From a plasmid, in the NCBI RefSeq assembly GCF_055900595.2, contig NZ_JBVWEU010000005.1: 40,586 nt of DNA, one strand, 5' to 3'. The notes beneath the pieces were generated by a model, which saw only the letters and a list, made by a program, of their open reading frames with translations, was not told where the DNA came from and made no database searches. Positions 3,429-39,084 of this stretch are shown piece by piece (position 1 is the stretch's first letter; every line of letters starts with the position of its first letter). The translations under genes were made by a program, and so were the position numbers.

Positions 3429-5459
3429 TTAAGCGCGTTTTATGGGGTTATAGTTTGGACTACCTTTAATATCTGGGTACGACTCCTTACAATTGGGATA
3501 ACCACTGCAAGACCAGAAGTGACCGGATTTTTTGGACGGACGACGAATAAGTCCTTTACCACATACCTTGCATTTGTACTTGTCAGAAATTTGCACACCA
3601 CCGGCAACTTTGATAGCTCCGGCATTAATAACCTTAATCTGCTCTCGTACAAATTTTTCCTGAATCTTCACAAAAGAATCAACGTCACGTTTCCCCTGCT
3701 CTATTTCCAGTAACATACGTTCGTTGATGGCTGTCATTACCGGGCTTTTAACAAGTTCTGGCAGAATGGCTATCAGCCCCCTTCCCAGCTTGGTACTGAT
3801 AATGTCTTTGCCTTTGTTTTCAATAAAACCACGTTTCTTTAAATCAGCAACAATTGTGGCGCGGGTAGCTGATGTGCCAATACCATCACCTTCCCGCAGT
3901 AATTTTTTCTGAGCCGGGTCTTCAACATACTTATGAATATTTTCCATTGCAGTGTTGAGTGTACCGTCATTAAAACGACGCGGAGCTTTAGTTTTAGCAT
4001 CCTGCCGCTGTGCCTGAGCACAAATAATTTCGTCACCATTTCTCATTGATGGAAGAGTCTGTTCAGACTCATTTTCTTTTTCTTCTTCATCCTCTCCATC
4101 TGAATAAACATCCTTCCATCCATTTTTAGTCGTTACGCGACCACCGGCCCCAAATGTTTCACCATTAACATCAATAATAATTGATGTCGCTTTATATTCA
4201 TGTACTGGATAAAATTGAGCCAAGTATGTTCTTACGATAAGGTCGTAAATATTACGCTCTTCTGGCGTAAGCCTTTCAACGTTACCTTTGTGCATCGTTG
4301 GGATAATGCCGTGATGCGCTGTAACCTTAGAGTCATCAAAAGTTTTTGATTTTACTTTTGGATCAGCCTTATCGATTAGAGCAGCTATTCCCGGATAAGT
4401 AACCCGAAGAGAATCCAGAATTTGAGGTGCATCTGCGTGTTGAGATTCAGGCAAATAAGAACTATCAGAACGTGGATAACTGGTAAGTTTATGCGTTTCA
4501 TAAAGAGACTGGCATATAGCCAGCACTTGCTCACCAGAATAACCAAACTTACTTGAAGCAACAGCGGTGATACTGCCAAGAGAATAGGCTTTTGGATGAT
4601 ATTTTTTCTTTGGCTCTTGCTTATATTCAACAACCTTACCGGATTTTCCGGTTAAAGCCGCTACTAGCTTATCAGCTTCTTTAGTGTCAATAAGCCTTCC
4701 CTCTGAATCAAGCCCTGGCTGATCTTCTCTGGCCTGCCATGCCGCAACAAACGCTCCTTTGTCATGTTTAAAGACAGCTTTAATATTGTGATAAGGAATT
4801 GGTTTGAAGTTTTCAATTTCGAGATCGCGGGCAACAACAAGTGCCAGCGTTGGTGTCTGAACTCGCCCGACCGTCAACAGAACACGCGAGCCACCACGCG
4901 CTGCCGACAACGTGAATCCTCTTGAAAGGTTCATTCCAACCAACCAGTCAGCCCGACCACGCGCAAGAGCTGCACGTCCAAAATTTACATATTTATCGTT
5001 GTTCTCAAGTCCTTTCAACGCCCTTGTGACACTTACCGTATCATTCGCATTACACCAGTAACGCAGAACCGGTTTAGTACATCCCATGTCATCAAGGATT
5101 TCATCAACCAGTAACTGCCCCTCGCGATCTGGATCGCCAGCATTTACAATCGTGTCAGCTCGCTCAACCAAATGCTGGATGGTTTTCAGCTGTTTCTCAG
5201 CATCTTCACGAGGATTAATAATCCATTTTTCGGGGATAATTGGCAGTTCATCTTCTCGCCAGATTTTTTTACCGCTTTCATTACGAGGCACATTGTCTGG
5301 TGTATATTCATCAGGTTCAGCCTGCTCAAACATATGACCAAAACACCAAGTCACATAGTCACTGCCGCACTCAATGTAACCGTCTTTTTTATTGGTTGCG
5401 CCTAATACCTCAGCGATAGCCCTTGCAACCGTCGGTTTTTCTGCAATAAATACTCTCAT
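3429..5459 (-). CDS. traE: DNA topoisomerase III (TraE-like), with C-terminal zinc ribbon
   Basis: 676 aa; N-terminal Toprim (MRVFIAEKPTVARAIAEVLG), C-terminal CxxC...C..C; strong SD (GGGAG); position as in RP4 Tra1. Confidence 0.85.
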   Translation of the reverse strand: MRVFIAEKPTVARAIAEVLGATNKKDGYIECGSDYVTWCFGHMFEQAEPDEYTPDNVPRNESGKKIWREDELPIIPEKWIINPREDAEKQLKTIQHLVERADTIVNAGDPDREGQLLVDEILDDMGCTKPVLRYWCNANDTVSVTRALKGLENNDKYVNFGRAALARGRADWLVGMNLSRGFTLSAARGGSRVLLTVGRVQTPTLALVVARDLEIENFKPIPYHNIKAVFKHDKGAFVAAWQAREDQPGLDSEGRLIDTKEADKLVAALTGKSGKVVEYKQEPKKKYHPKAYSLGSITAVASSKFGYSGEQVLAICQSLYETHKLTSYPRSDSSYLPESQHADAPQILDSLRVTYPGIAALIDKADPKVKSKTFDDSKVTAHHGIIPTMHKGNVERLTPEERNIYDLIVRTYLAQFYPVHEYKATSIIIDVNGETFGAGGRVTTKNGWKDVYSDGEDEEEKENESEQTLPSMRNGDEIICAQAQRQDAKTKAPRRFNDGTLNTAMENIHKYVEDPAQKKLLREGDGIGTSATRATIVADLKKRGFIENKGKDIISTKLGRGLIAILPELVKSPVMTAINERMLLEIEQGKRDVDSFVKIQEKFVREQIKVINAGAIKVAGGVQISDKYKCKVCGKGLIRRPSKKSGHFWSCSGYPNCKESYPDIKGSPNYNPIKRA

Positions 5460-15031: not shown

Positions 15032-16045
15032 TTATCCTTCAATAAGGCAAATTATTTTCACGTTTTCGAGATTTAGCTCTTCTTCTACACCAGTTGAATC
15101 AAACTTAATCCAGGCAAGCCCTTCTTCACTTGGGCGCTTGGTCAGGATAAGGCGGCCCTGCTCCCCCAGGTACTCAACGATAACAATAGCCTTTTTGAAT
15201 TTATCAGGATCGGTTTCCTTTTCTGGCGTCTTACGGACCTTATCGGTCACATCGTTATCATCGTGGCCGTCCGTATCATCTTCGGCAGCTTCCGAATCGG
15301 TACGGCCATTGAAGGCGTCAATGGTGTCTGGATCACGCTTGCTGGATTCTTTTTCGTCCAGGAACTCACGGAAAACTTTCACCGCACTACGGGTAATGTC
15401 TTCACCCTCGTTCTCTTCAAGCAGTTTTTGAACTTCTTCCGGGTCTTGCTTGTAAGCCGTTACCAGCTCATTAACTACGGTAACATCACGGATTGAACCT
15501 TTATTAAAAGCATCTGCTATACAATCCGGCAGGTCCAGCAACGCTGCGTGTTGGGTTACGAACGCTGGCGACTTGCCAAGCCGTTTAGCAATCTGAGATT
15601 TTGATACCCCCTCAGCCAGTTTGCGGCCAATGTGTACGGCAATTTCACGCGCCGTCAGGTCATTACGCTGGATGTTCTCAATGACCTGATCATCGTCGCT
15701 ATAGTCATTATCGATAAAAGCGGGAATTTGTTTCTTCCCGGCCACTTTACTGGCTCGCCAGCGACGTTCTCCATGGTTAATAATATAGCGCCCCGCTTGC
15801 TCCGGGTTCTCGCGAACGGAGACAGGCATTTTCACACCACGCGCTTTAATGGTATCAGCCAGCTCCTTAATGGATTCCTCTGAGAACCCTGGGTTGTCCT
15901 GCTTACGCGGTTGTTCAGGATCGGGATCAATCGCATCAACGTCCAGCATCAGTGGTTTACCCTCAGCACCTGCAGACGCATCAAGAAAGTCGGAGAGATC
16001 ACCAACGGTATCAAGGCCAAGGCCGGAAGAATTTTTTTTAGTCAT
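15032..16045 (-). CDS. korB: KorB (ParB-family partitioning protein and global repressor)
   Basis: 337 aa, ParB-like, acidic linker, follows incC with start/stop overlap; its cognate operators are scattered across the window. Confidence 0.85.
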   Translation of the reverse strand: MTKKNSSGLGLDTVGDLSDFLDASAGAEGKPLMLDVDAIDPDPEQPRKQDNPGFSEESIKELADTIKARGVKMPVSVRENPEQAGRYIINHGERRWRASKVAGKKQIPAFIDNDYSDDDQVIENIQRNDLTAREIAVHIGRKLAEGVSKSQIAKRLGKSPAFVTQHAALLDLPDCIADAFNKGSIRDVTVVNELVTAYKQDPEEVQKLLEENEGEDITRSAVKVFREFLDEKESSKRDPDTIDAFNGRTDSEAAEDDTDGHDDNDVTDKVRKTPEKETDPDKFKKAIVIVEYLGEQGRLILTKRPSEEGLAWIKFDSTGVEEELNLENVKIICLIEG

Positions 16046-17214: not shown

Positions 17215-17226
17215 GTTTAGCTAAAC
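17215..17226. promoter_or_regulatory. KorA operator (OA) GTTTAGCTAAAC
   Basis: Perfect 12-bp palindrome identical to the RK2 class I KorA operator, upstream of korA. Confidence 0.8.
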
Positions 17227-17259: not shown

Positions 17260-17313
17260 ATACACTTTTTTCGATATAAAGAAACAGAAAACTACTCACT
17301 TTTCATCTATTAT

Positions 17314-17341
17314 CAAAAAAAAACCGGCTTATAGCCGGTTT
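17314..17341 (-). terminator. rho-independent terminator after the kinase operon
   Basis: Hairpin AACCGGC-TTATA-GCCGGTT flanked by an A-run on the plus strand (T-run on minus). Confidence 0.55.
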
Positions 17342-17357
17342 ATCCTTGGACATTTAA

Positions 17358-17948
17358 CTAACGACTTAATTTCTTCTTTTTCATTCTGGCCTGCTCAATC
17401 TCTGTCCCAGCGACTTTTTTAAACCAATCAGGCAAATCATTAGAAATGAACTTTGTTTTATCTTGTTCTGTGCGGAAAAGTAATCGCCGTCTGTTATAAC
17501 TGTTATCAAATACCCATACCCGGTCAGCCACGGCCATAGCTTTAGGTAGGTTGGTTACAGAACGCTCGTATCGTCTGAAAATATCATCAACAGGCACATT
17601 ATGACCACCAAGGCTTACACGCTGGTTAACGCGAGCTACTGACATTCCTACATCTTTCACCCCCACATAGATTAAATTAATTTTGTAACCTGCAGTTGCA
17701 GCAAGCTGCATTAACTTAATCTCCCCCATTCCTGTGAGTGTCGTTTCTACAGCGAAAGTACATCTATTTTTGATATTTTCCGTGCGCAGAAAAAGTGCCT
17801 GCTCTCCTGCCTTTCGATTGCTTATACCTTGTTCCCGCGCAATATCATCAGGGTTAACAACCTCTATTTTCCCAAGGATATGTCGCTTAACTAGGGTAGA
17901 TTTTCCTGCACCATTAGGCCCAGCAATAACCCAGAGTTGAGGACGCAT
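17358..17948 (-). CDS. zeta-toxin-like P-loop kinase
   Basis: 196 aa; Walker A AGPNGAGKST at residues 9-18, then IEVVNPDDIA resembling the zeta-toxin hhhDNDxF segment; ATGA start/stop overlap with the upstream ORF. Confidence 0.55.
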   Translation of the reverse strand: MRPQLWVIAGPNGAGKSTLVKRHILGKIEVVNPDDIAREQGISNRKAGEQALFLRTENIKNRCTFAVETTLTGMGEIKLMQLAATAGYKINLIYVGVKDVGMSVARVNQRVSLGGHNVPVDDIFRRYERSVTNLPKAMAVADRVWVFDNSYNRRRLLFRTEQDKTKFISNDLPDWFKKVAGTEIEQARMKKKKLSR

Positions 17949-18199
17949 CAGAGCTTAACCTCAACTACTTTTTCTGTACCAGTCATGAAACTCACCAGTT
18001 CCTTACGGCCATCTGGATATTCTTTTATAACACACCCTTCTGGTGTATTTCGTTCAGCGTAATAAATAGGTACGCCACTAAGAAGATTGGCACGGGCTTC
18101 TTCACCTGCATCATATCCAAGTTGTCTATCAAAAACGGTAAAAAATCGTGCTTCATCAGAAGGTGTCATTTCGGCCAGATGAGATAGATCCATACTCAT
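17948..18199 (-). CDS. small protein translationally coupled to the kinase (candidate antitoxin/partner)
   Basis: 83 aa, acidic; its stop overlaps the kinase start. Confidence 0.45.
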   Translation of the reverse strand: MSMDLSHLAEMTPSDEARFFTVFDRQLGYDAGEEARANLLSGVPIYYAERNTPEGCVIKEYPDGRKELVSFMTGTEKVVEVKL

Positions 18200-18274
18200 A
18201 TTAAACCCTCTATAATTTACAATTAGAAATTAACTGACATTATATAATCAGAAATGCCAACGCATTCATTCTAT

Positions 18275-18598
18275 CTATGACACTTTGGGTTTCCATGTTG
18301 CCATAATGTAAGTGAGAGTAGCCAGTACAAGGAAACTGGTCACGAACGGCCAGGCTGCAGCAAATGGGCCATCACTCCATTTAAACAGCATTTTAAAAAA
18401 CTGGATGACAACGTTCGCGATCAGCAGGAAGCGAACAGGAATCCAGAGAATAACCAGCACCATGTATACCGCACCAATGACACCATACAGGATATTACGT
18501 ACTGTGTTTTCTGATGCTGGACCAGCGACATCCTCGACCGCCCGAATTTGCTGCGGTTTACTTCCCTCTTGACGAGGAAATTTAACGACATTGGTCAT
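18275..18598 (-). CDS. small inner-membrane protein (two TM helices), first gene of the operon
   Basis: 107 aa, hydrophobic core; perfect SD AGGAGG; operators immediately upstream. Confidence 0.6.
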   Translation of the reverse strand: MTNVVKFPRQEGSKPQQIRAVEDVAGPASENTVRNILYGVIGAVYMVLVILWIPVRFLLIANVVIQFFKMLFKWSDGPFAAAWPFVTSFLVLATLTYIMATWKPKVS

Positions 18599-18648
18599 AC
18601 CGGCCTCCTGCTTTATTCAAGTGGTTTACCAAACCTTTACGCATATTA

Positions 18649-18665
18649 TAGGACATATTGTCCTA
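18649..18665. promoter_or_regulatory. putative KorC-type operator TAGGACA-TAT-TGTCCTA
   Basis: Perfect 17-bp palindrome; same architecture as RK2 OC (TAGGGCATAATGCCCTA) with different half-site bases. Confidence 0.55.
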
Positions 18666-18675
18666 TAATTGCAAT

Positions 18676-18688
18676 TTTAGCAGCTAAA
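18676..18688. promoter_or_regulatory. KorB operator (OB) TTTAGCAGCTAAA
   Basis: 13-bp palindrome with central A. Confidence 0.75.
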
Positions 18689-18695
18689 ATCTGTT

Positions 18696-18956
18696 TCACA
18701 CCTTCCAGATTTTACCCAATCCTGCATATTCAACCAGAATAGCCCAGGCCGAAAAAGGAATGGGTGTATCCCCCCCAACCCAGCGCCTGACGGTTCGGCT
18801 GTCTTTCAGACCGGTCAGTGTGGCTGCTTTGCTTCCTGTTAGCTCTGCTATCTGCATCAAAGTACGAATTTCTTCTGGCGTAGGACAATCCCATCCCGCA
18901 CCAAAGGGTAAAAAACATTCTGACCTGATTAAGACAGGGTAGGGTTTAGTTTGCAT
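18696..18956 (-). CDS. korC: KorC-like small HTH repressor
   Basis: 86 aa, starts immediately after the klcB stop (klcA-klcB-korC order as in RK2 kilC); HTH-like segment LTGSKAATLTGLKDSRTVRRW. Confidence 0.5.
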   Translation of the reverse strand: MQTKPYPVLIRSECFLPFGAGWDCPTPEEIRTLMQIAELTGSKAATLTGLKDSRTVRRWVGGDTPIPFSAWAILVEYAGLGKIWKV

Positions 18957-20643: not shown

Positions 20644-20660
20644 TAGGACATTTTGTCCTA
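20644..20660. promoter_or_regulatory. putative KorC-type operator TAGGACA-TTT-TGTCCTA
   Basis: Perfect 17-bp palindrome about 55 bp upstream of the klcA start. Confidence 0.55.
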
Positions 20661-23024: not shown

Positions 23025-23036
23025 GTTTAGCTAAAC
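23025..23036. promoter_or_regulatory. KorA operator (OA) GTTTAGCTAAAC
   Basis: Perfect 12-bp palindrome between divergent ssb-trfA and trbA. Confidence 0.8.
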
Positions 23037-37039: not shown

Positions 37040-37663
37040 CTATTTATCTTTAAATTCATCCTGCAGCTTATCAATGCCTTTAGTTAAATCTTGACTTTTA
37101 CCATCTTTATAATCAGGCCATGGAATAAACATCTTTCCTGATTCCTGCATCATTGCAATTGATGTAGGACAGCGCCATTCAGATTCATCACCTTTTTTGT
37201 ATTTAAAAACAACCATTCCACGTTCACACTTAACATCGGGGGAAATGGACTGAATAAACATCGAATTAGCGGAACCATTCTCACCGGCATTGAACATTGC
37301 GCTGTCAAAAAATATAAATGCGAGAATTAATGAGAGAACGGCACAACCAGTATTCCAGAATTTCTTTCCACGTTCGGAATAAAATGAAAACATCATCACC
37401 ATTGCTAGAGATGAAATAAAACCTAACCATTGTGACGCAACTGAAAGTTGTGAAAGCGTTTTAACTGTATAACCACCTTCACCAGAAAGGAAAGACAAAA
37501 TAAACGGTGAAACAATAAAGCAAATTGCTGGAAAACAGGTAAATATCAGTTTGGCATTATTCTTGATTAACTGGCGCTCTCCAGAAGCCGCCGCGATCAT
37601 CGACTGCCACATGATTTTTACCAGCGTCAGCATCAGAACACTGCAGATCAACATATAAAGCAC
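37040..37663 (-). CDS. membrane protein with C-terminal soluble domain, under two putative OC operators
   Basis: 207 aa, about 4 TM helices then a charged C-terminal region; function unknown. Confidence 0.55.
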   Translation of the reverse strand: MLYMLICSVLMLTLVKIMWQSMIAAASGERQLIKNNAKLIFTCFPAICFIVSPFILSFLSGEGGYTVKTLSQLSVASQWLGFISSLAMVMMFSFYSERGKKFWNTGCAVLSLILAFIFFDSAMFNAGENGSANSMFIQSISPDVKCERGMVVFKYKKGDESEWRCPTSIAMMQESGKMFIPWPDYKDGKSQDLTKGIDKLQDEFKDK

Positions 37664-37706: not shown

Positions 37707-37723
37707 TAGGACAAAATGTCCTA
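37707..37723. promoter_or_regulatory. putative KorC-type operator TAGGACA-AAA-TGTCCTA
   Basis: Perfect 17-bp palindrome 44 bp upstream of the 207-aa gene. Confidence 0.55.
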
Positions 37724-37732
37724 TCATAGATG

Positions 37733-37749
37733 CAGGACATAATGTCCTA
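37733..37749. promoter_or_regulatory. putative KorC-type operator CAGGACA-TAA-TGTCCTA
   Basis: Second copy 10 bp from the first; tandem arrangement. Confidence 0.5.
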
Positions 37750-38097: not shown

Positions 38098-39084
38098 ATG
38101 AAGCCACACACTCTCCCAAAATGGTGCGTTATGAAAAAATTTCAGGTCAGAAATTTCCCGGACGATGCATATTTCGCCTTGGAACAGTTAGCAAACGAAA
38201 ATCAACGTTCGGTCGAAGGTGAGGCCCGCTATGCTCTGTTGAAATGGATAGCACCTCCTGAGCAGGTTTATTCTGGAGAAGAACTATACCGGCAGGAAGT
38301 GTCTGGCCGCCTCAATACAGTTCTGCGGAAAACCAACCAATTCCGTAACTACAAACCTCTTGTGCCGTCCAATGTGGCCGTAGAGCTGAGGATTGAAGAT
38401 CTTGGCCTTGTCGCCAACTGGTTCAGTGGTGACGTACTCCCTTCCTTCACTGAGCTGCAGCGGTTAAGCAAGTTATTTGGTTGTCGCGCCGACTGGTTAA
38501 TTCACGGTGAGGGGGATGTGTATGAATGGAACTCAGGCGTCAGAATGCACGGCGCAGGCCGGGCTGCTGTTAAGCACCTTCTCAGACCTGATAGTGATGG
38601 TAATAAAGTCACAGACATCAGGCTGCTAAGAGAAGATAGTGATATAGGAGCACTTCTGATACTCCGTGAGTTTGAAAATACACGGTATGTTGATGCGTTC
38701 TGGACAAACCTACACGTAAGTGAAGCCATTGGAGCCGGTGGCGAGTCTGATTTGGCTGATTTTTTTGTCACTCTTCGGGCGCTGTACAAGAGTTTTGTCA
38801 AACTTGATGTAAACGTCAAAGGCTACCTTATGCCGCGATCTGCCTATAAGCAAATCAGAGAAGAGGAACAAGCCTATCCACTGATGCTTCTCAAGGATTA
38901 TCGTGTAAATGAAAGCATGTGGTGGGAGGATATTTGGGATAAAAGTCAAAGAGGTAAATTTAATTACTGGAAAGGTGATGAGGCGCTGATTCGTCGCATT
39001 GAAGATGCAATAAAGCGTAATAAAAGATTGCTTGATGAAATTGAAGCTATTAAAAACTCAGATCCTTTGGACCATGATGATTAA
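38098..39084 (+). CDS. multidomain protein: Arc/MetJ-type ribbon-helix-helix, XRE-like HTH and a ~180-aa C-terminal domain of unknown function
   Basis: Segment MKKFQVRNFPDDAYFALEQLANENQRSVEGEARYALLKW resembles RHH proteins; ...LSKLFGCRADWLIHGEG resembles the end of an XRE HTH. True start may be the ATG at 38131. Confidence 0.55.
   Translation: MKPHTLPKWCVMKKFQVRNFPDDAYFALEQLANENQRSVEGEARYALLKWIAPPEQVYSGEELYRQEVSGRLNTVLRKTNQFRNYKPLVPSNVAVELRIEDLGLVANWFSGDVLPSFTELQRLSKLFGCRADWLIHGEGDVYEWNSGVRMHGAGRAAVKHLLRPDSDGNKVTDIRLLREDSDIGALLILREFENTRYVDAFWTNLHVSEAIGAGGESDLADFFVTLRALYKSFVKLDVNVKGYLMPRSAYKQIREEEQAYPLMLLKDYRVNESMWWEDIWDKSQRGKFNYWKGDEALIRRIEDAIKRNKRLLDEIEAIKNSDPLDHDD

Follow-up and report, generated by a model that had tools for sequence, protein, structure and literature searches.

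A zeta/PezT-like kinase and its small acidic partner as a candidate toxin–antitoxin cassette behind kleE of an IncP/P-1 clade II plasmid

The window analysed here, a stretch of 40,586 nucleotides of plasmid DNA (contig NZ_JBVWEU010000005.1), carries three genes between korC and korA, the last of which encodes a short P-loop kinase and the middle one of which, orf83, encodes a small acidic protein. The question raised by this locus is whether orf83 and the kinase form a toxin–antitoxin pair, and how such a pair would be controlled among the plasmid's own repressor genes. The reading preferred here, which is given a probability of roughly 60%, is that the two genes are a mobile, addiction-type toxin–antitoxin cassette that an IncP/P-1 clade II plasmid has acquired behind kleE, within its central control region. 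It rests on how the genes and operators are laid out, on the fold, on the homology of the kinase to a toxin family with experimental validation, and on the conserved pairing, purifying selection and pattern of decay of the two genes; from these we infer the toxicity of the kinase, its neutralisation by binding, co-transcription, the lability of the antitoxin and the substrate. An earlier, sequence-only reading had placed a zeta-like kinase and a small partner in a Kor-controlled kle operon, and this central idea is largely right. The three co-oriented open reading frames (ORFs) that it described are present, all on the minus strand:

18598–18275, minus strand: kleE homologue, 107 residues, a small membrane protein and the first gene of the operon
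18199–17948, minus strand: orf83, 83 residues, acidic, candidate antitoxin
17948–17358, minus strand: short zeta/PezT-like P-loop kinase, 196 residues, candidate toxin

The kinase protein starts with MRPQLWVIAGPNGAGKSTLVKRHILGKIEVVNPDDIA and has a pI of 10.2. Its Walker A motif, G10-PNGAGKS-T18, is invariant in 37 homologues, and the residues invariant in the same alignment are G10, N12, G13, G15, K16, N32, D34, E68, T69, T70, G73, R106, R110, G114, G115, H116, R126, R143, D148 and N149. An indexed search returned 499 homologues, mostly about 190–210 residues long and annotated as “zeta toxin family”, “AAA family ATPase” or “predicted ABC-type ATPase”; homologues are present on 677 plasmids of PLSDB. 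The profile search against zeta families that the sequence-only reading had proposed came out mixed: the Pfam model Zeta_toxin (PF06414) matches at E = 7.4e-6 over model positions 87–188 of 199 only (the N-terminal piece has E = 0.58), AAA_33 scores equally well (E = 9e-6), and a profile search against PDB gave E = 0.37 for PezT and E = 0.021 for Pnkp1. A direct sequence link to solved zeta structures was rejected, as a single-sequence search of PDB gave P-loop matches only.

The alignment-based AlphaFold2 (AF2) model of the kinase has a predicted local distance difference test (pLDDT) score of 94.9, and a Foldseek search of PDB with this model returned PezT, AvrRxo1-ORF1 (TMq 0.69–0.71) and zeta at the top, all with a probability of 1.0. 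The fold is predicted to be zeta/PezT/AvrRxo1-like; by itself, a modelled fold of this kind does not separate zeta-type kinases from polynucleotide kinases. In hhalign, the sequence ..IIDND.. of zeta lies over ..VVNPD.. of the kinase, which puts the zeta catalytic D67 (D66 in PezT) on D34. As the sequence link to the solved zetas is missing, the zeta connection rests on the fold and on homologues of the Rv0366c type.

Rv0366c of Mycobacterium tuberculosis is a protein of 197 residues, described by Tandon et al. 2019, with 9-GPNGAGKS-16, N34, D36, E75, R116 and H122 and no GTxR motif (PMC6362051). It stops the growth of Escherichia coli, Mycobacterium smegmatis and M. tuberculosis, co-expression of the upstream gene Rv0367c restores growth, and each of the substitutions K15A, D36A and R116A inactivates it; its pocket was judged by its authors to be nearer to AvrRxo1, a nicotinamide adenine dinucleotide (NAD) kinase (PMC6362051). 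Here, the comparison was made by proxy, using mycobacterial “zeta toxin family” orthologues with identical residue numbering, which were reached through a Rhodococcus plasmid homologue and which matched every published Rv0366c residue number. The kinase aligns with these orthologues in BLASTP at E = 1e-18 with 34% identity over 152 residues, and the window counterparts of the key Rv0366c residues are K16, N32, D34, E68, R110 and H116. By sequence, the kinase is placed as a member of the short “non-canonical PezT” branch typified by Rv0366c, and it retains, as K16, D34 and R110, the residues needed for Rv0366c toxicity. Among the PezT/zeta-like clades with a validated member, a 2023 review ranks this branch as the most distant; it adds that most non-canonical zeta/PezT-like toxins are without a known antitoxin and that experimental data are scarce (PMC10532202). 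What stands of the zeta/PezT likeness first claimed for the kinase is the fold, the homology to the Rv0366c branch and these three residues; the part that does not stand concerns the GTxR motif and zeta chemistry, as explained below.

The candidate antitoxin, orf83, has a pI of 4.6. It has no Pfam, NCBIfam or PADLOC match, 20 members of its family are likewise without a Pfam match, and the scans found no helix-turn-helix (HTH), ribbon-helix-helix (RHH) or AbrB signature. The family carries the motif DDGxxAR..L..G.PvYY....TP.G.vIk..PDGr..LV, and a profile search of 1.84 billion representatives placed 553 clusters in the orf83 family, 198 with E <= 1e-10 and nearly all of 60–130 residues. When orf83 was joined to the kinase through a (GGGGS)6 linker and modelled by AF2 from paired sequences, the predicted template modelling score (pTM) of the whole chain was 0.88, with a pLDDT of 94–97 for orf83 residues 30–80 and below 50 for the linker. 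Such a pTM is hard to reach unless both parts are confidently docked, and orf83 is thus predicted to dock on the kinase. In this model orf83 has three helices followed by a four-stranded sheet, unlike epsilon or PezA. Strong purifying selection acts on both genes: when the window is compared with a variant of 84% identity, the ratio of nonsynonymous to synonymous substitution rates (dN/dS) comes to 0.04 in orf83 and 0.09 in the kinase.

Two side observations concern the C-terminal part of orf83. The beta-hairpin region at about residues 50–80 matches 40 repeats in a protein of 5,807 residues (P0255), and one homologue on a Sphingomonas plasmid is named “T-complex 10 C-terminal domain-containing protein” by the annotation pipeline PGAP. 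An identity with the CPAP/TCP10 G-box (PDB 4bxq, E = 3e-5) was rejected because no stretch was individually significant, leaving a weak beta-meander hint at most; judged from sequence, the C-terminal region may be a G-box-like beta-meander.

The pairing of the two genes is found well beyond the window. On chromosomes or contigs of Photorhabdus, Achromobacter and Burkholderia, on a Piscirickettsia plasmid, and on Zymomonas and other plasmids, an orf83 homologue lies directly 5' of a kinase homologue, with either an overlap of 1–4 nt or a gap of 12 nt. A scan of one genome per species gave 80 kinase loci from many phyla and, together with three earlier loci, 82 with a usable start. At 75 of the 82 a same-strand ORF ends between −40 and +150 nt from the kinase start, a count that is an upper bound since it takes in some large unrelated genes and likely chance ORFs. 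An orf83-type partner is present at 15 of the 82, including every kinase that is at least 39% identical to the one in the window, and most of these 15 loci have a 4-nt overlap. In the window the overlap is a single base (17948, TGATG) and not the ATGA that the sequence-only reading had reported, though ATGA overlaps are frequent in homologous loci. At least three further families of small proteins stand in front of the more distant kinases. The four partner families could not be related to one another, as hhalign gave no significant alignment of the orf83 family with partner families B, C and D. Exchange of partners in this way is common among toxin–antitoxin systems.

The pair also appears to be mobile. 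In Salmonella contigs of 51–53 kb the kleE slot is likewise filled by a kinase, 84% identical, and its 81-residue partner, and in a further plasmid a 79%-identical pair adjoins a resolvase and trb genes. The best explanation for its presence in the kleE slot of two backbones and beside a resolvase in a third plasmid is that the cassette is a mobile two-gene unit. The synonymous divergence of the two kleE-slot cassettes is about 0.7–1.1, compared with 0.4 for kleE, and the flanks are 96–97% identical; because the divergence of the cassette is far above that of kleE and the flanks, the slot has been refilled or recombined. In another conjugative plasmid, a strongly hydrophobic ORF of 87 residues (L092, 3490–3753) has a stop that overlaps the orf83 start and echoes the kleE–orf83 order. 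A three-gene module with a membrane protein was nevertheless rejected, for this ORF is unlike KleE (E = 1.5) and the chromosomal loci are without such a gene.

Further support for a harmful kinase comes from the way in which the pair decays. The same partial match, consisting of orf83 and the first 37 or so nt of the kinase gene, is found in 57 E. coli chromosomes. In the one of these that was inspected, E. coli W5-6 (L105, 3985–4289), orf83 is intact with 85% identity and the kinase ends after about 13 codons, with its Walker A motif destroyed; the locus is an integrated conjugative-type element next to guaA with integrase, EexN, RepA and TraJ. In one metagenomic locus, likewise, a remnant of the kinase gene comes after orf83. 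If the kinase were harmful without orf83, one would expect just this, that the kinase is lost and its partner kept. The view that the 83-residue gene behaves as the partner of the kinase is supported by synteny in Proteobacteria, the fused AF2 model, the dN/dS of 0.04 and the orphans beside decayed kinases. A strict co-occurrence in the reverse direction, from orf83 to the kinase, was rejected: among four orf83-family genes that were sampled, two have no nearby kinase, one has a kinase remnant and one lies on a contig that is too short, and the existence of orphans means that pairing is not obligatory. One orphan, on the 2.7-kb Gluconobacter plasmid pGOX5 (L102, 1429–1674), stands beside mazEF. 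Others are found on enterobacterial plasmids of 7–9 kb, such as a 7.4-kb E. coli plasmid (L103, 423–776), and the small-plasmid orphans adjoin mazEF or higA. Orphan copies of orf83 could serve as anti-addiction genes.

How the pair is expressed in the window depends on the region around kleE, the elements of which are as follows:

18696–18956, minus strand: korC, 86 residues, 58% identical to KorC of pB3 (E = 4e-29)
15032–16045, minus strand: korB, 337 residues, ParB-type global repressor, named ParB/RepB/Spo0J by PGAP
18645–18674, minus strand: sigma-70 promoter; −35 TTGCAA at 18674–18669, 18-nt spacer, −10 TATAAT at 18650–18645, 10 of 12 consensus matches
18676–18688: putative KorB operator TTTAGCAGCTAAA (minus-strand reading TTTAGCTGCTAAA), which abuts the upstream side of the −35
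18649–18665: putative KorC operator, palindrome TAGGACATATTGTCCTA (minus-strand reading TAGGACAATATGTCCTA, 18665–18649), which overlaps the spacer and the −10
17341–17311, minus strand: intrinsic terminator; 9-bp GC-rich stem (AAACCGGCT/AGCCGGTTT), 3-nt loop and T-run
17285–18282: segment of about 1 kb (spacer, orf83, kinase, terminator) with no counterpart in pMCR16_P053, which has a gene for 213 residues there

On the same strand, the operon is preceded by klcA-like and klcB-like genes and korC and is followed on its 3' side by korA, incC and korB. The korB equivalent of a Salmonella sister plasmid (L090) carries the Pfam domains PF08535 (KorB) and PF06613 (KorB_C). The interval from korC to kleE is 100 bp long and holds the KorB operator, the −35, the −10, the KorC palindrome, an AGGAGG ribosome site and the ATG. 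KorC, a trans-acting repressor, is predicted to bind the palindrome at 18649–18665, and KorB is predicted to bind the operator at 18676. The KorB operator occurs at 12 sites in the window, where 0.15 would be expected by chance, and the KorC palindrome at four (0.24 expected), one of which is the klcA promoter at 20644. An identical 17-mer palindrome lies between korC and kleA of the IncP-1β plasmid pB3, and the same palindrome is present at the klcA and kleA-like promoters of pMCR16_P053. Because it is shared with the korC/kle/klc promoters of these two plasmids, it is taken to be the KorC operator of this plasmid group, and the adjacent KorC-like and KorB operators of the sequence-only reading are confirmed. 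The KorA operator GTTTAGCTAAAC is found in the window only at 17215, in the korA promoter, and at 23025, with none at the kleE promoter. Elsewhere in the window, two more KorC-type palindromes, TAGGACAAAATGTCCTA (37707–37723) and CAGGACATAATGTCCTA (37733–37749), lie 26 bp apart in the divergent region between a resolvase-like gene of 207 residues (37040–37663, minus strand) and an ORF of 328 residues (38098–39084, plus strand), which suggests that KorC also controls these two genes.

The promoter stretch matches the region of the kleA-like promoter in pMCR16_P053 with 96.9% identity. Since the kleA-like gene of the sister plasmid is missing in the window and kleE comes directly behind, the promoter that drives kleE is the ancestral promoter of the kleA type. 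It is also 87% similar in its region to the klcA promoter (window 20661–20567). At the other end, the hairpin terminator expected from the first reading is present, and no other terminator-like site was found on the minus strand from the promoter to this hairpin. A promoter scan inside the operon gave a single site with 9 of 12 matches, located within the 3' end of kleE. The spacer between kleE and orf83 contains a TATAAT (18244–18239) without a usable −35 in the window; this TATAAT is kept in the Salmonella variant, where it reads TGGTATAAT and is extended −10-like. The idea that a promoter or operator moves with the cassette was rejected, since the different contexts share only about 25 bp in front of the orf83 start codon. 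The GC content of the cassette, 0.39–0.44, is slightly under that of its neighbours and is uninformative.

The first gene of the operon had been described as a kil-like protein with two membrane segments. The membrane part of this description agrees with the hydropathy of the protein, in which hydrophobic segments are centred near residues 41–63 and 90, and its identity can now be given more closely: it is a KleE homologue, 25–32% identical to IncP-1 KleE over its full length, named KleE by PGAP, and the orthologue in the Salmonella sister plasmid L090 (83% identical) carries the Pfam domain PF17394. What follows kleE differs from plasmid to plasmid. In pB3 it is kleF, of 176 residues, in pMCR16_P053 it is the gene of 213 residues, and in the window it is orf83 and the kinase; pairwise comparison of these slot contents showed no relation among them. 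The possibility that the cassette is a diverged kleF was rejected: neither KleF of pB3 nor the 213-residue protein of pMCR16_P053 resembles the kinase, and the cassette is therefore a replacement. In blastn against pMCR16_P053 the flanks (window 20699–18620 and 17284–16001) are 95–97% identical and kleE is 86.6% identical. The kleA-like gene that is absent from the window encodes a DUF2688 protein of 74 residues and lies between korC and kleE in the sister plasmids (L002, 3167–3480). By its position, the cassette of about 1 kb occupies the slot of the IncP-1β kleF. In L090 a HigB-like toxin gene (4620–4868) lies directly 3' of the kinase, with more DNA before korA. For addiction genes, the interval between kleE and korA seems to act as a hot spot.

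By backbone comparison the window is a plasmid of the IncP/P-1 “clade II” type of about 41 kb. Its backbone is 96–97% identical to the IncP plasmids pMCR16_P053 and pMNCG082-1, and Hayakawa et al. assigned pMNCG082-1, together with pMCR_1511 and pHS102707, to IncP/P-1 clade II, a newly recognised group. At least 29 PLSDB plasmids contain the 1.55-kb region with an identity of 99% or more across 80% or more of its length; they are conjugative (MOBP/MPF_T), about 40–57 kb in size and come from E. coli, Salmonella, Klebsiella and Shigella. There PGAP names the three products “KleE stable inheritance protein”, “hypothetical protein” (orf83) and “zeta toxin family protein”. The full cassette is plasmid-borne in 28 of 5,426 complete E. 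coli genomes. One relative of 40.6 kb is a bare backbone comprising tra, trb, trfA, ssb, klcA, klcB, korC, kleE, the cassette, korA, incC, korB, kfrB, kfrC and a resolvase, and the annotation of this minimal plasmid contains no other toxin–antitoxin system. The earlier statement that the combination lies outside the described IncP-1 backbone therefore needs to be divided: the combination is absent from classical IncP-1 plasmids, and it is already annotated, as a zeta toxin family protein with KleE, in about 30 plasmids.

Several observations weigh against the toxin–antitoxin reading. The GTxR motif for UDP-N-acetylglucosamine (UDP-GlcNAc) is absent from the alignment of the kinase, where E68-T69-T70-L71-T72 replaces E-G-T-G-R of zeta. 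As this motif is missing, zeta chemistry is not to be assumed and the target need not be essential; the zeta-style binding of UDP-GlcNAc is probably not the substrate mode. In addition, the hhalign alignment to the zeta of pRE25 spans the N-terminal 39 columns only, and the model of the complex is a linker fusion, judged by its pLDDT and pTM. The TATAAT in the spacer could be a weak internal −10 for the cassette, co-transcription with kleE being the inferred alternative. Finally, orf83-family orphans without any trace of a kinase (L097, L099, pGOX5 and 7-kb E. coli plasmids) indicate that the family could have an independent role.

A different view takes the kinase to be an accessory enzyme without toxicity, whose substrate would be a small molecule or, as for a polynucleotide kinase, nucleic-acid ends, with orf83 as its regulatory or chaperone subunit and a metabolic or repair benefit to the host or plasmid. 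We regard this as improbable. Rv0366c, the closest relative that has been characterised, is toxic in E. coli, the kinase keeps the catalytic residues of that toxin, and the bicistronic overlap, the acidic partner, the swapping of partners and the location on plasmids and mobile elements resemble a toxin–antitoxin system, not a housekeeping gene. Moreover, one E. coli chromosomal locus kept orf83 and lost the kinase, and the phosphatase, ligase and Hen1 partners of Pnkp repair systems are not present at the kinase locus. Another view is that the pair serves mainly as an anti-phage (abortive-infection) module or one directed against competing mobile elements, in which infection would free the kinase from orf83 and the cell would be arrested; this function, though compatible with addiction, seems unlikely to be the main one. 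Its appeal lies in the neighbours of distant kinases, which include type I restriction–modification genes, with HsdS 5' at an overlap of 1–4 nt (L034, 1116–2486; L064, 555–2498) and HsdR 5' in L066 (29–2434), as well as a DUF1156 anti-phage gene 5' in L061 (26–2029), so that part of the kinase family sits in defence islands. The Photorhabdus pair is located among other toxin–antitoxin and HTH genes, and both proteins have PHROG matches, the kinase to phrog_2071 (“ATPase”, E = 3e-9) and orf83 to phrog_21003 (function not assigned, full length, E = 5e-43). Against this, the orf83-type subfamily was seen on plasmids, on an integrated element and at ordinary chromosomal sites and not in restriction–modification loci, and no sensor domain is present. 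A tblastn search of 50,697 phage genomes gave no match to orf83, and its phage origin was rejected despite the PHROG match. PADLOC gave matches at the P-loop level only (best E = 2.7e-4) and no full-length model, and the link to abortive infection and defence drawn by the sequence-only reading thus found no known defence system behind it.

The same early reading had used a kil phenotype as an argument, in which the kinase would be a kil-type determinant kept harmless chiefly by KorB and KorC repression. The KorB and KorC operators do flank or cover the sole strong promoter, and kle genes are known kil determinants under Kor proteins. However, the same pair is found on chromosomes and other plasmids without Kor proteins, and since it exists without kor genes its control must reside in orf83. 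The argument is also unnecessary, because the kil effects of IncP-1 are attributed to kleA, kleE, klcA and klcB themselves, without any kinase, and the sister plasmids that were examined and pB3 are without the cassette. What neutralises the toxin of a toxin–antitoxin pair is the partner protein, not transcriptional silence. A kinase held in check mainly by the plasmid repressors is accordingly very unlikely.

If the pair is a toxin–antitoxin cassette, the kinase would use ATP, bound through Walker A K16, and the catalytic D34, aided by R110 and H116, to phosphorylate an essential small molecule, and growth would stop. The acidic orf83 protein would bind the kinase and block it. Because orf83 has no DNA-binding domain and the cassette has no promoter, read-through from the kleE promoter is the simplest way of expressing the pair, which would be transcribed with kleE from the KorB/KorC-repressed promoter and end at the cassette's own terminator. 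Cells that have lost the plasmid would lose orf83 sooner than the kinase and be inhibited, and plasmid maintenance would be favoured. By analogy, this arrangement would parallel omega–epsilon–zeta, in which a separate global regulator of the plasmid controls an antitoxin without a DNA-binding domain. A bolder version, which is offered tentatively and is rather doubtful as a whole, is a three-party system in which KorB, a ParB-type partition protein and repressor, and KorC play the role of omega: the pair would be expressed in a burst on entry into a new cell before Kor proteins build up and then be throttled, the target of the kinase would not be UDP-GlcNAc, and the antitoxin would have an undescribed fold.

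The backbones of about 41 kb that carry the cassette are close kin of the mcr-1-carrying IncP plasmids of Enterobacteriaceae, and since the minimal backbone has no other annotated toxin–antitoxin system, addiction to it may depend mainly on the cassette, which may also contribute to its persistence. The locus would also provide a compact enterobacterial model for the short PezT branch of the M. tuberculosis type, a case of a toxin–antitoxin pair without a regulator of its own inside a well-understood repressor network, and a family of candidate antitoxins that comprises about 550 sequence clusters and has so far been annotated only as “hypothetical”.

Among the closest known systems is Rv0366c/Rv0367c, the non-canonical PezAT (PezT(Mtb)/PezA(Mtb)) of M. 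tuberculosis. Shared features are a single-domain kinase of about 196 residues, GPNGAGKS, N-x-D, a conserved Glu, R-x5-H (RVxxGGH), loss of GTxR and a small upstream gene. The partners differ: Rv0367c is a ParD-like, RHH DNA-binding antitoxin (PF11903), whereas orf83 is unrelated to it and has neither a Pfam match nor a predicted DNA-binding fold. The setting differs as well, being an actinobacterial chromosome for Rv0366c and a proteobacterial plasmid, apparently under plasmid global repressors, for the window kinase. The canonical epsilon/zeta systems of pSM19035 and pRE25 and PezAT of Streptococcus pneumoniae, whose toxins are UDP-GlcNAc 3'-kinases, are more remote; identity to the kinase is 10–23%, the kinase is about 90 residues shorter and lacks the GTxR that they possess, the position of Arg171 is occupied by His116 (PMC6362051), and epsilon and PezA are three-helix bundles, unlike orf83. 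AvrRxo1-ORF1/ORF2 of Xanthomonas, an NAD 3'-kinase with its antitoxin or chaperone, gave the best template modelling score among solved structures; like the window pair, it joins a zeta-like kinase to an unrelated small partner of its own, and AvrRxo1 has a substrate other than UDP-GlcNAc. It differs in being a type III effector of about 420 residues with 14–17% identity, and the likeness seen here is one of fold. A zeta-type system, ng_epsilon1/ng_zeta1, is known from an IncP-like gonococcal conjugative plasmid (PMC2848598, PMC5923241); it has in common with the cassette an IncP-related conjugative plasmid, a Gram-negative host and an antitoxin whose fold is unrelated to that of epsilon. The kleE–kleF operon of RK2, R751 and pB3 has the same position between korC and korA, kleE as its first gene and the same KorC and KorB operator types, whereas the window has no kleF, has its kleA-like gene deleted and has no KorA operator at the promoter. 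Taken with these systems, the cassette is not of a new kind, as the kinase is already publicly annotated as zeta-family and its branch has one validated member; what appears to be undescribed is the partner family to which orf83 belongs, the way in which it is paired with this clade of kinases throughout Proteobacteria, and its placement in the kleF slot under KorB and KorC operators.

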